Assembly (NCBI GenBank): GCA_964595665.1
Contig: CAZQQS010000024.1
Location: 1 to 7,476, forward strand
Source: an uncultured archaeon
GTDB lineage: Archaea; Iainarchaeota; Iainarchaeia; Iainarchaeales; 0-14-0-20-30-16
DNA: 7,476 nucleotides
Direction of reading: 5' to 3'
Positions within the stretch are counted from its first letter, which is position 1. Each line of letters begins with the position of its first letter. Below the pieces are notes generated by a model. It saw nothing but the letters and a program-made list of their open reading frames with translations, ran no database searches and was not told the origin of the DNA. A program made the position numbers and the translations under genes. Of the stretch, positions 2,603 to 3,853 are shown in pieces.

Positions 2603-3853
2603 TTATTCTCTTTTTATTTCTTTCAATCTCTTCAAGAATATAGTCTGATAAGACTCACTAACTTTTAAAATCCATTTAAAATATTCTGGCCATTTGTCTT
2701 CTTTTTCCATATCTGCAGAAATTTGGTCACTAATTATTGCTCCTTTAAGTTCTGGTTTATCATCCCATTTTAAAGATTTGCCGTATTCTTTTTCAATAGC
2801 CTCTTTATCTTCATATATTGAATTGTATGCTTCTTTATTGAAAAAATATAAATCTGCAGCGATGATGTTTTTCTTACGATTAATTTTTATCGCAATTCCT
2901 GCATTTGAGTTGCCTATTGCTATTGAATAATATGAGGGAGTTGTTGGCTGTGCTCTACCCAATCTTAATTTACTATTTTGTTCTTTTGCATAAATAATAA
3001 ATTGATTAATAAATTCAATATTTTGTAATGCTGTAGTTGATAATTCTTTACTGTACATTGTATTCCTAATAACTTTGGCCCAATCGTTAGGTTTAGATAT
3101 AATTTGAAATTTTGGGGCGCAAGGACTATCTCCAATTTGCCAAAGTTCTATTTTAATTAAAAAGAAGTTTATATTTTCACTACTGTGTTCATTTAACCAA
3201 TCTATTGCTCTTTGATGTTCTTCTCTTATATCTTTTACTACCCAAATTATTATTTCTGCGTCATATCCTGAAGCGTAAGTAACTATTTTTCCTAAATGGT
3301 CATGATCTGTTGTTTCAAGTTGATTTTCAATAATTATTATTTTTCCTTTAGTAGATAATACTTTCTTAATGAAATTATCCTTTCCATTAAAATAAATGCC
3401 ATCTCCTTCTTGGTCTATAGTTTTCTTTTTGGTTTTTTTGTTAATATAAATAAATCTTTTAATTAGTCCTTTTTTTACTCCAAGACCTGTTTTCTTAAAG
3501 AATATTGTTTGTGTAGTAAACCCTAGTGTTGATTTTTTTGTTTCTTTTAGATATGCTATCATAGATTCAATTAGAAGCTTTCCGTAGTTTTTTCCTTTTT
3601 CAATAGCAATTACGCTACAAATTCCAAATATCTTGTATTTTTTGTTTAGATAGTTTATAGTTATTGGTTGTAGAACAAGAAAAGCTTTTATTTTTGATTT
3701 TTTCTTTACAAACATAACAACAGAACTAAGAGGATAGTCTTTTTTCCAGTTTTTTGTTGCTGTTTTTCCAAAATTAGTAATTCTGCCTCTATTCATTAGA
3801 GTCATTTCTTTTGTAGATAAATCTTTTAGTTTTTTATGTTCTGTAGTTATCAT
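2603..3853 (-). CDS. Fusion protein: N-terminal GNAT acetyltransferase + PD-(D/E)xK-nuclease remnant + DUF4268-like C-terminal domain
   Basis: 416-aa ORF. GNAT motif A is [25 protein letters not shown], followed by [8 protein letters not shown]. A K-rich linker follows (INKKTKKKT). Next comes [35 protein letters not shown]...AIDWLNE...[21 protein letters not shown]...KPNDW, the conserved core I recall from nuclease-DUF4268 proteins. The tail is DUF4268-like (LKWDD...KGAIIS...DKWPEYFKW). Confidence 0.6.
   Translation of the reverse strand: [416 protein letters not shown]

Follow-up and report, generated by a model that had tools for sequence, protein, structure and literature searches.

A GNAT–DUF4268 reading frame in a DPANN archaeon as a probable accidental chimera formed at microhomology

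On the reverse strand of the window, the whole 7,476-nt stretch of DNA that was analysed (27% GC and homopolymer-rich), positions 2603..3853 encode a 416-aa protein (NCBI protein P0355) in which a GNAT acetyltransferase (residues 1–171) is joined to the C-terminal part of a nuclease–DUF4268 protein (residues 170–416). This ORF is probably a real, accidental and recent chimera generated by recombination at microhomology, and a by-product rather than an adapted sensor–effector protein. Both parents are found as genes of their own, the breakpoint can be placed and the residues lost at it can be named, the same junction recurs in other assemblies, and some of the haplotypes that carry it are frameshifted. 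The reading frame is unbroken over its entire length, and the remaining two frames across the junction are rich in stop codons.

The two halves and their parent families

The GNAT-derived part (3341..3853, reverse strand) corresponds to a near-complete standalone GNAT of ~179 aa without its last ~8 residues (...VIIPILHW). It showed 48–73% identity to 27 standalone proteins of ~161–190 aa; one 119-aa fragment reached 92%. When compared with these standalone GNATs of DPANN archaea (P0121–P0147), residues 1–171 aligned end to end and kept all 19 invariant columns, whereas the last ~8 residues, among them the near-invariant final Trp, had given way to a 245-aa extension. Members of the family finish ...STKGKVIIPILHW, an ending from which the window protein departs at the junction. 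A C-terminal I/V-x-(H/F/Y)-W was present in 12 of 12 genomic copies and in 25 of the 26 aligned family proteins, with P0128 ending in HR; the window protein has no free C-terminus after its GNAT domain and runs on as IIIIENQ... to the end of the extension. As this near-invariant free tail has been replaced by so long an extension, the acetyltransferase may be impaired. The literature on the terminal Trp of AAC(2′) held only a molecular-dynamics mention of contacts made by Trp181, which is a lead and not evidence.

No Pfam GNAT match was obtained for the window protein itself at E ≤ 1, but PF00583 was detected in 19 of 26 GNAT homologues (best E-value 1.5e-7), PF13508 in 14 and PF13527 in 13. 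Motif A, (Q/R)xxGxG/A, reads K86-G-K-G-Y-G91 in the family consensus and K-G-K-N-Y-G in the window, G89 being near-invariant in the standalone family and replaced by Asn in the window protein and a few close relatives. The AF2 model of this part had a pLDDT of 95 and a pTM of 0.88, and Foldseek returned 236 PDB matches to it at E ≤ 1e-3, the top one being AAC(2′)-Ia (TM 0.72, E 3e-7). The best 50 of these 236 were all GNAT-type acetyltransferases, one of them annotated merely as a protein of unknown function; the nearest in structure were AAC(2′)-Ia/Ic, ElaA and GCN5, with NatD also among the top matches. Residues 1–171 are predicted from these models to adopt a GNAT fold.

The first-pass annotation had described about 135 residues of clear GNAT followed by a Lys-rich linker. 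The assignment to GNAT held at the level of the family and of the fold, but it does not follow from the window sequence alone, and the GNAT-derived part comprises 171 residues. The supposed linker KKTKKKT (within NKKTKKKT, 3421..3441, reverse strand) is a conserved stretch of the GNAT family, as it aligns with the family consensus (alignments A1 and A5) and was confidently modelled by AF2. The true junction is found ~75–110 nt 3′ of this segment, at ~3332–3347.

Regarding the second half, residues 170–416 were 100% identical in protein sequence to P0001, a canonical allele of 312 aa. A search with the C-terminal part produced 3787 matches, and nearly all of the best 120 were proteins of ~306–336 aa with a canonical N-terminus, while four were shorter and probably partial. 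The DUF4268 domain (residues 280–407; 2633..3016, reverse strand) is intact (Pfam PF14088, E 2.9e-13), and in the P0001 model it resembles the YbjN/type III secretion chaperone fold. It is preceded by a remnant of a NucS-like PD-(D/E)xK domain (fusion residues 172–255, canonical 68–151; 3089..3340, reverse strand), recognized by its invariant residues, AF2, Foldseek and PADLOC. The motif-bearing segment that had been taken as the core of DUF4268-family proteins is indeed a conserved core of a large family, but it belongs to this NucS-like domain and not to DUF4268.

The loss of an upstream Asp-bearing strand, proposed from the sequence, was confirmed: the first ~66 canonical residues, with E48 and D57 (the VDIL strand), are absent, and the comparison of both halves with their families shows that the GNAT sits where the N-terminal half of the PD-(D/E)xK domain belongs. 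In total, 12 invariant residues are dropped (R11, E17, F21, W24, N30, L34, G39, E48, A49, G52, D57 and E61), together with core β-strands 42–51 and 54–62 and helices 10–38 of the P0001 AF2 model. Catalytic residues were thus only partly retained relative to the canonical nucleases, as E72 and the near-invariant Q74 survive as E176 and Q178 (the E-N-Q strand), along with the later helices and strands. In agreement, the PADLOC profile of PDC-S11 (PDLC04911) was covered by the window protein from position 67 to 314 of 318 (E 4e-78) and by P0001 from 5 to 314.

A sequence search of the PDB with the canonical nuclease family gave no meaningful matches, and only the fold search gave any. With the nuclease domain of P0001, Foldseek retrieved NucS (2vld), EndoMS (5gke), Hjc, SfsA, MGME1 and Ecl18kI, of which NucS/EndoMS matched the canonical N-terminal domain best in structure (E 8e-4) despite undetectable sequence similarity. 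NucS lacks DUF4268 and has a DNA-binding domain of its own at the N-terminus, and the window protein keeps only the second half of the fold common to both. The closest characterized counterpart is MdgA, a NucS + DUF4268 modification-dependent anti-phage nuclease with the same architecture as the NucS–DUF4268 family (PDC-S11), in which an E77A change in the VIVENK strand kills activity (bioRxiv 10.1101/2025.02.28.640651); modification-dependent cleavage and phage defence have been shown experimentally only for MdgA and MdgB, and DUF4268 has been proposed in the literature as the substrate-recognition module of type IV restriction enzymes. Compared with these MdgA/PDC-S11 nucleases, the window protein keeps the ExQ/ExK strand, the nuclease domain from β-3 onwards and a complete DUF4268, and lacks profile positions 1–66, that is, E48, D57, two core strands and the N-terminal helices. 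Because two core strands, the helices preceding them and the metal-binding E48/D57 are missing, we infer that the nuclease part of the fusion is catalytically dead, and the model suggests that the remnant probably cannot fold as a PD-(D/E)xK domain. Judged by its sequence, the window protein should not be counted as a functional member of PDC-S11.

Natural partners of the GNAT family and the sensor–effector reading

Relatives of the GNAT were searched for among 1.84 billion representatives, yielding 356 GNAT representatives, of which the best 150 were examined. In nearly all of these the GNAT domain reached the C-terminus of the protein or fell short of it by a few residues, and no extension there exceeded about 13 residues. 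The longer proteins carried N-terminal GrpB, nucleotidyltransferase or kinase domains (P0161, P0151, P0149/P0150 and P0265), these natural fusions belonging to the same GNAT family as the window protein. In all of them the partner is N-terminal and the C-terminus free, whereas in the window the additional part is C-terminal and consists of a truncated, unrelated nuclease. P0161 is a natural single-chain GrpB + GNAT fusion; in the window a GrpB-family gene (3867..4370, reverse strand; PF04229, E 7e-31) stands as a separate gene directly upstream, 13 nt from the GNAT start. Since natural GrpB–GNAT fusions exist, this gene appears to be the native partner of the GNAT.

The GNAT was also standalone in 12 GTDB genomes, except for an N-terminal extension in one of them (L013), and no DUF4268 gene was found near the GNAT relatives in the flanks fetched from these genomes, up to 10 kb per side. 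The GNAT::DUF4268 order was absent from the best 120 of the 3787 nuclease-family matches, from the 27 GNAT matches, from the best 150 of the 356 GNAT representatives and from the 12 genomes; the chimera was found only in three contigs that are >99% identical.

These data bear on the domain swap proposed in the first-pass annotation, in which DUF4268 and the nuclease remnant would form a DNA-binding or sensor scaffold and the GNAT would act as the effector of a new defence or toxin protein. In favour of such a protein, the window ORF is unbroken and in frame, DUF4268 is complete and has a proposed role in substrate recognition, the GNAT fold is all but complete and was modelled with confidence, and the gene is still translationally coupled to its downstream partner. 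Nevertheless, we consider this reading unlikely: the architecture is unmatched among the homologues examined of either half and the join lies on microhomology; the relatives of the GNAT keep a free C-terminus and have GrpB rather than a nuclease as their conserved partner; to judge from the P0001 model, a PD-(D/E)xK core reduced to one half would hardly be stable enough to serve as a scaffold; and of the three assemblies that contain the junction, two have a frameshift at residue ~113. In addition, the C-terminal part is identical to that of the intact allele P0001, which argues that no adaptation has taken place since the join.

The precedent of GNAT toxins that acetylate aminoacyl-tRNA, invoked in support of the same proposal, was not borne out either. 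The window protein has the GNAT fold in common with TacT, AtaT and ItaT, but these tRNA-acetylating toxins were not among the best 50 structural matches, where the nearest structures were acetyltransferases of small molecules or proteins. No antitoxin-like neighbour of the fusion was identified, its neighbours being the GrpB gene and an uncharacterized 128-aa gene, and PADLOC gave no match for the standalone GNAT P0121. The natural fusions of the family to GrpB, nucleotidyltransferase and kinase domains hint at a role in the modification of small molecules.

The junction and its genomic surroundings

The junction zone (residues ~170–174, GK-III; 3332..3347, reverse strand) is a place where both parent families align, and the crossover is therefore located within it, inside 12–17 nt of microhomology (GGAAAAATAAT...) and away from the Lys-rich homopolymers. 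The corresponding DNA reads ACTAAAGGAAAAATAATAATTATT in the window, AACACAGGAAAAATAATTATTATT in contig L001 and ACTAAAGGGAAAGTAATTATACCA in contig L003. Homology of the window to L001 and L023, which carry the canonical nuclease gene, starts at 3347–3350, and similarity to the GNAT family extends to ~3332. From 3347 to 2509 the DNA of L001 equals that of the window apart from four synonymous differences, none of them more than 67 nt from the junction; the further 772 nt show no difference, and upstream of the junction both sequences are unrelated.

The same junction was detected in two independent Logan contigs, L002 (SRR27710297, 99.5% identity) and L024 (SRR11845635, 99.8%), and thus it is not an assembly artefact; an exact 38-mer across it had no match in JGI metagenome contigs or GTDB genomes. 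That two genes had been joined by chimeric assembly or by a sequencing error in a homopolymer was a reasonable concern for a metagenome-assembled contig with this base composition, so many homopolymers and a nearby A7/A8 length variation, but it is almost certainly not the explanation. Identical junctions occur in three assemblies that differ by SNPs (the NCBI contig and Logan contigs from two runs), and the parents share only ~12–17 nt at the join, below the k-mers of de Bruijn assemblers. Logan assemblies use k = 31. The more specific worry, that a frameshift at 3415–3445 had created the fusion, is refuted, as the GNAT-family frame passes straight through the homopolymers of 3421–3441; moreover, a base missing there could not supply the 66 absent N-terminal residues of the nuclease, which no other frame encodes.

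The fusion lies in a variable island. Contig L023 has the outer flank of the window and its ~130-nt repeat, yet its genes include an MmeI-like R-M system, a T5orf172/ResIII gene and a DUF4268 gene that is still intact and shows 93% identity to the window, starting at exactly 3350. In L001 and L023 the upstream neighbour of the canonical nuclease gene is the 842-aa T5orf172/ResIII gene. Downstream of the fusion, the 128-aa gene (2214..2600, reverse strand) starts 2 nt past its stop codon; the first 90 nt of this gene also follow the nuclease gene in L001, up to the end of the contig, and its homologues sit behind other upstream genes in sister lineages. It shows weak EVE/UPF0310-like similarity. 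The ~130-nt repeat contained no tRNA, had no Rfam match and no exact match in JGI metagenomes.

Two simple routes to the junction were considered. A tandem duplication is rejected, as no duplication extends beyond the two ~130-nt repeats and these share only ~92% identity, compared with an essentially substitution-free fusion. A simple deletion between adjacent genes finds no support in the available contexts, since the neighbour of the canonical nuclease in L001 and L023 is not a GNAT and the DUF4268 gene never appeared in the fetched flanks of the GNAT relatives. A larger deletion may have led to the fusion.

We therefore favour an origin of the chimera by a very recent illegitimate recombination at the microhomology, within a single lineage of an AT-rich, Woesearchaeota/Pacearchaeota-like DPANN archaeon. 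This event would have joined the 3′ end of a small standalone GNAT gene, the second of a GrpB–GNAT pair, to codon ~66 of a NucS-like PD-(D/E)xK + DUF4268 nuclease gene (a PADLOC candidate, PDC-S11), through a deletion or a cassette replacement.

Frameshifted haplotypes and the fate of the chimera

The GNAT part of the window contains a run of seven A residues (A7; 3533..3539, reverse strand), which is the in-frame reading according to the alignment with the GNAT family. Both Logan contigs carry an extra A in this run (A8, at 3540), which shifts the frame at residue ~113 so that translation stops at residue 119. In both, A8 goes together with two neighbouring SNPs (3529 and 3632).

We infer that the chimera arose as a by-product when cassettes turned over in a defence island, that its effect is neutral or mildly deleterious, and that it would already be decaying, being lost in some strains through the A7→A8 frameshift. 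Against this reading, it can be argued that the ORF of the window is intact, with DUF4268 and the coupled downstream gene undamaged, so that expression of the 416-aa protein is possible, and that A8 could in principle be a reversible phase-variation switch. No direct sign of relaxed selection was seen in the C-terminal part, where there have been zero substitutions since the join. A very unlikely alternative is that a gene has been caught at birth, an expressed chimera that has already found a use, for example with its GNAT tethered by the intact DUF4268 to modified phage DNA or to another target of that domain, and with the A7/A8 run as its on/off switch; if true, it would represent a nascent architecture for defence or regulation that had not been seen before in DPANN archaea.

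If the chimera is instead the accident of one lineage, as we favour, GNAT::DUF4268 does not belong in catalogues as a new combination of defence or toxin domains. The locus would then be a clean natural case of microhomology-mediated gene fusion, of modest value; its two parental forms, the exact position of the breakpoint and a frameshift that inactivated the gene early on can all be retrieved from public metagenomes. It would also illustrate how ORFs are created and destroyed by the turnover of defence-island cassettes in DPANN archaea.

Finally, the A7/A8 tract could be regarded as that of a phase-variable contingency gene, toggling expression of the chimera or of the GNAT, given that both tract lengths occur in natural populations and A8 was found in two independent runs. 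This is highly improbable, as the three contigs show only two states, the SNPs that accompany A8 speak for two stable haplotypes and not for rapid switching, and an A tract of 7–8 nt is ordinary at such a low GC content. Furthermore, the same Lys-rich stretch (KKTKK) recurs at the position of the tract in the standalone family members that were examined.

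Two gene families joined in one reading frame

The open reading frame at 2603-3853 on the reverse strand comprises 416 uninterrupted codons, and stop codons crowd both other frames over the proposed junction in the window, which has a GC content of 27%. DUF4268 was the sole Pfam match of the 416-aa protein (residues 280-407, E 2.9e-13), and no GNAT model matched the protein alone at E<=1. When residues 1-171 were searched separately, 27 matches of 161-190 aa were obtained, with 48-73% identity and ~100% coverage, the exception being one 119-aa fragment with 92% identity; the N-terminal part is almost a whole gene in its own right. 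Among 26 of the homologues, PF00583 was found in 19 (best E 1.5e-7), PF13508 in 14 and PF13527 in 13. In the PDB, the family profile weakly detected acetyltransferases, GCN5 among them, and an AlphaFold model of residues 1-171 (pLDDT 95, pTM 0.88) matched AAC(2')-Ia and Ic (TM ~0.72, E 3e-7), then ElaA, GCN5 and NatD. Taken together, the Pfam matches of the homologues, the profile and this confident model show that the GNAT assignment of the first-pass annotation was right, although the single sequence alone could not establish it. The family alignment, in which the last residue is a near-invariant Trp, continues through the stretch at 3421-3441 previously taken for a Lys-rich linker; this stretch is not a linker.

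The C-terminal 247 residues had 3787 homologues in a search of 5.8 billion proteins; nearly all of the best 120 were ~306-336 aa long with a canonical N-terminus, such as MLGKLKKVELRNAWKHEALDFTNWLA...TEAPVGGYSVDILAEEENTGK. In a 50-member alignment, R11, E17, F21, W24, N30, L34, G39, E48, A49, G52, D57 and E61 were invariant within the first 66 positions, as were E72 and N73 of the IIIENQ strand, with Q74 near-invariant. The AlphaFold model of P0001, a canonical 312-aa member (pLDDT 86.6), has an N-terminal alpha/beta domain (~1-150) followed by the DUF4268 domain. As the closest PDB folds to the former were NucS (2vld, E 8e-4) and EndoMS (5gke), then Hjc, SfsA, MGME1 and Ecl18kI, it can be assigned as a PD-(D/E)xK nuclease. 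P0001 also matched the PADLOC candidate defence family PDC-S11 over profile positions 5-314 of 318 (E 7e-110), whereas the chimera covers positions 67-314 only. The proposal that a GNAT domain stands in place of the N-terminal half of the nuclease was confirmed, with its boundaries corrected to residues 1-171 for the GNAT part.

The modelled DUF4268 domain (~170-310 of P0001, residues ~274-414 here) appears to adopt a fold like that of YbjN and type III secretion chaperones, with Foldseek matches to ExsC, YbjN and AmyR (E ~1e-3, target-normalised TM-score ~0.5). In the papers covered here, DUF4268 is regarded as a possible substrate-recognition module, and such a fold was not found in them. 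Type IV restriction enzymes of the GmrSD type had already been described as containing the domain (PMC4619093). MdgA, a modification-dependent anti-phage nuclease of the same architecture as P0001, is far more active in degrading T4 DNA than unmodified T4-GT7 DNA. The E77A substitution, which reads VIV(E>A)NKLDD in the mutagenic primer, inactivates it (bioRxiv 10.1101/2025.02.28.640651). This VIVENKLDD strand is the counterpart of IIIENQLE in the nuclease part of the chimera.

The junction and its haplotypes

Residues 170-416 are 100% identical to P0001. At the DNA level, the contig encoding P0001 (L001, SRR11845627) differs from window positions 3347-2509 at only four sites, all synonymous (3335, 3302, 3290 and 3281); the 772 nt beyond these sites are identical, and upstream of 3347 the two are unrelated. 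All four differences lie in the 67 nt nearest the junction, out of 839 nt compared (P ~4e-5 under uniformity), and those at 3335 and 3302 also separate the window from L023, a sister-strain contig. This clustering beside the junction favours a mosaic donor allele over decay after the fusion, and suggests that 3281-3335 represents such an allele or that a gene-conversion tract adjoins the breakpoint. On the other side, GNAT-family similarity reaches down to ~3332. The junction reads ACT AAA GGA AAA ATA ATA ATT ATT GAA in the window, AAC ACA GGA AAA ATA ATT ATT ATT GAA in the nuclease parent (L001) and ACT AAA GGG AAA GTA ATT ATA CCA in a contig carrying a GNAT relative (L003). Comparison of the three places the join in a microhomology of 12-17 nt, encoding GK(I/V)II in both parents, which is 75-110 nt further 3' than the homopolymers at 3415-3445 formerly suspected as the fusion site.

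The possibility of an assembly artefact was rejected, as the identical junction is present in two Logan contigs of other runs, L002 (SRR27710297, 1785 nt, 99.5% identity to 4322-2539) and L024 (SRR11845635, 1281 nt, 99.8% identity to 4251-2972). The junction is therefore real; the homology common to the parents at the join would also be far shorter than assembler k-mers.

In both contigs the A7 run at 3533-3539 is one A longer, and this change is linked to SNPs at 3529 and 3632. Translation of this A8 haplotype stops at residue 119 owing to the frameshift (P0127, P0354), and only a 151-aa DUF4268 fragment is then recovered by gene callers. The intact 416-aa reading was found only in the window (NCBI entry P0355); the other two of the three sampled haplotypes are frameshifted. 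L002 and the window differ at nine sites, every one of them on the GrpB/GNAT side of 3437 (P ~0.002-0.004), a sequence pattern consistent with a more recent common origin of the nuclease-side segment.

Consequences of the fusion and the native GNAT partner

The nuclease side lacks canonical residues 1-66, comprising strand 5-8, helices 10-38 and the core strands 42-51 and 54-62 with E48 and D57, and starts at strand 68-74 (E176-N-Q178 of the chimera). A PD-(D/E)xK site that lacks the Asp and Glu strands cannot bind the catalytic metal; BglII is a known example of the E-x-Q form in the last motif. The nuclease part is thus presumably dead. The GNAT side loses only its last ~8 residues, including the terminal (H/F/Y)W, a loss that may impair the acetyltransferase.

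The GNAT family profile retrieved 356 matches from 1.84 billion representatives. In the best 150, the domain lies nearly always at, or a few residues from, the C-terminus of its protein, and no C-terminal extension longer than about 13 residues was found. The few long relatives carry N-terminal partners: GrpB in P0161 (PF04229, 8.7e-32), a Pol-beta-type nucleotidyltransferase in P0151, weak NTP_transf_5 matches in P0149 and P0150, and an AAA_33 kinase in P0265. With these partners and its AAC(2')-like structures, the family resembles, by analogy, bifunctional enzymes that modify small molecules or antibiotics. In 12 GTDB genomes (Woesearchaeota, Pacearchaeota or unclassified archaeal MAGs) the gene stands alone (177-189 aa), one copy having an N-terminal extension (354 aa), and all 12 proteins end in (H/F/Y)W; neither a DUF4268 gene nor any other window gene was found beside it within flanks of up to 10 kb per side. 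The GNAT::DUF4268 architecture was absent from these genomes and from the best 150 representatives. In the window, a GrpB gene (3867-4370) lies 13 nt upstream of the GNAT start (GNAT, 3341-3853). This position and the GrpB-GNAT fusion P0161 indicate that the native unit is GrpB-GNAT, to which the nuclease piece is a foreign addition.

The functional domain swap proposed at first is unsupported, given the absence of this architecture elsewhere and the frameshifted haplotypes, and it is very improbable that the chimera is expressed and useful.

Cassette exchange in a defence island

The 8.5-kb L023 contig (SRR8925747, 1-8490) shares the outer flank of the window (its 1-81 matching 7452-7372) and a ~130-nt element (8279-8411, matching 234-104 with 96% identity), but its gene set between the two is wholly different. 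In order, it carries an MmeI/Eco57I-like R-M system, an 842-aa T5orf172/ResIII gene, an intact NucS-DUF4268 gene, DUF488 and a further gene; the 842-aa gene also precedes the canonical nuclease gene in L001. The DUF4268 gene of L023 has 93% DNA identity to the window from exactly 3350 to 2597. In the window, the ~130-nt element forms a direct repeat (104-236 and 4574-4705, ~92% identity with small indels, spacing 4470) flanking the block HTH/PIN-like/p57/p128/chimera/GrpB. It showed no tRNA, no Rfam match and no exact match in JGI metagenomes; it may mark the edge of an island or cassette, be a site of recombination or encode an unknown ncRNA. In type I R-M and Mrr islands of sister lineages, close homologues of the 128-aa gene (p128) are preceded by a rhomboid gene, one of these contigs (L020) having a homologue of the window HTH gene downstream of p128. 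The L023 gene set marks the locus as hypervariable and, with the repeats and these p128 contexts, shows a variable defence island with cassette exchange.

The most likely origin of the chimera is illegitimate, microhomology-mediated recombination, which would have removed the 5' part of an MdgA-like nuclease gene and left the remnant in frame behind the GNAT gene, most simply as a by-product of cassette exchange or deletion in the island. The locus is of value mainly as a well-documented case of how a chimeric gene arises in a defence island of a DPANN archaeon.

Regarding the neighbouring genes, p128 (2214-2600, reverse strand) starts 2 nt past the chimera stop codon, and its homologues (86-91% identity) are in every case closely coupled to whichever gene precedes them, a rhomboid gene in L020-L022. 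It is weakly UPF0310/EVE-like (PH1033, E 0.027; PF01878 in one family member, 0.029; NF002008, 0.002). A 190-aa ORF and a Dam-family N6-adenine DNA methyltransferase gene (PF02086, 4e-41) are convergent with a 4-nt overlap (4823-5395, forward, and 5392-6375, reverse). Pfam, NCBIfam and PADLOC gave no family match for the ORF, a candidate for an orphan restriction endonuclease paired with the methyltransferase. Two tandem NUDIX hydrolase genes (6445-6837 and 6844-7356, reverse strand) adjoin the methyltransferase. The 344-aa HTH protein (233-1267, reverse strand) has an N-terminal TrmB/Lrs14-like winged helix by weak matches and Csa3/CARF-type HTH matches in PADLOC, and divergent from it is the gene of a 191-aa protein (1451-2026, forward strand) with weak PIN-domain similarity.
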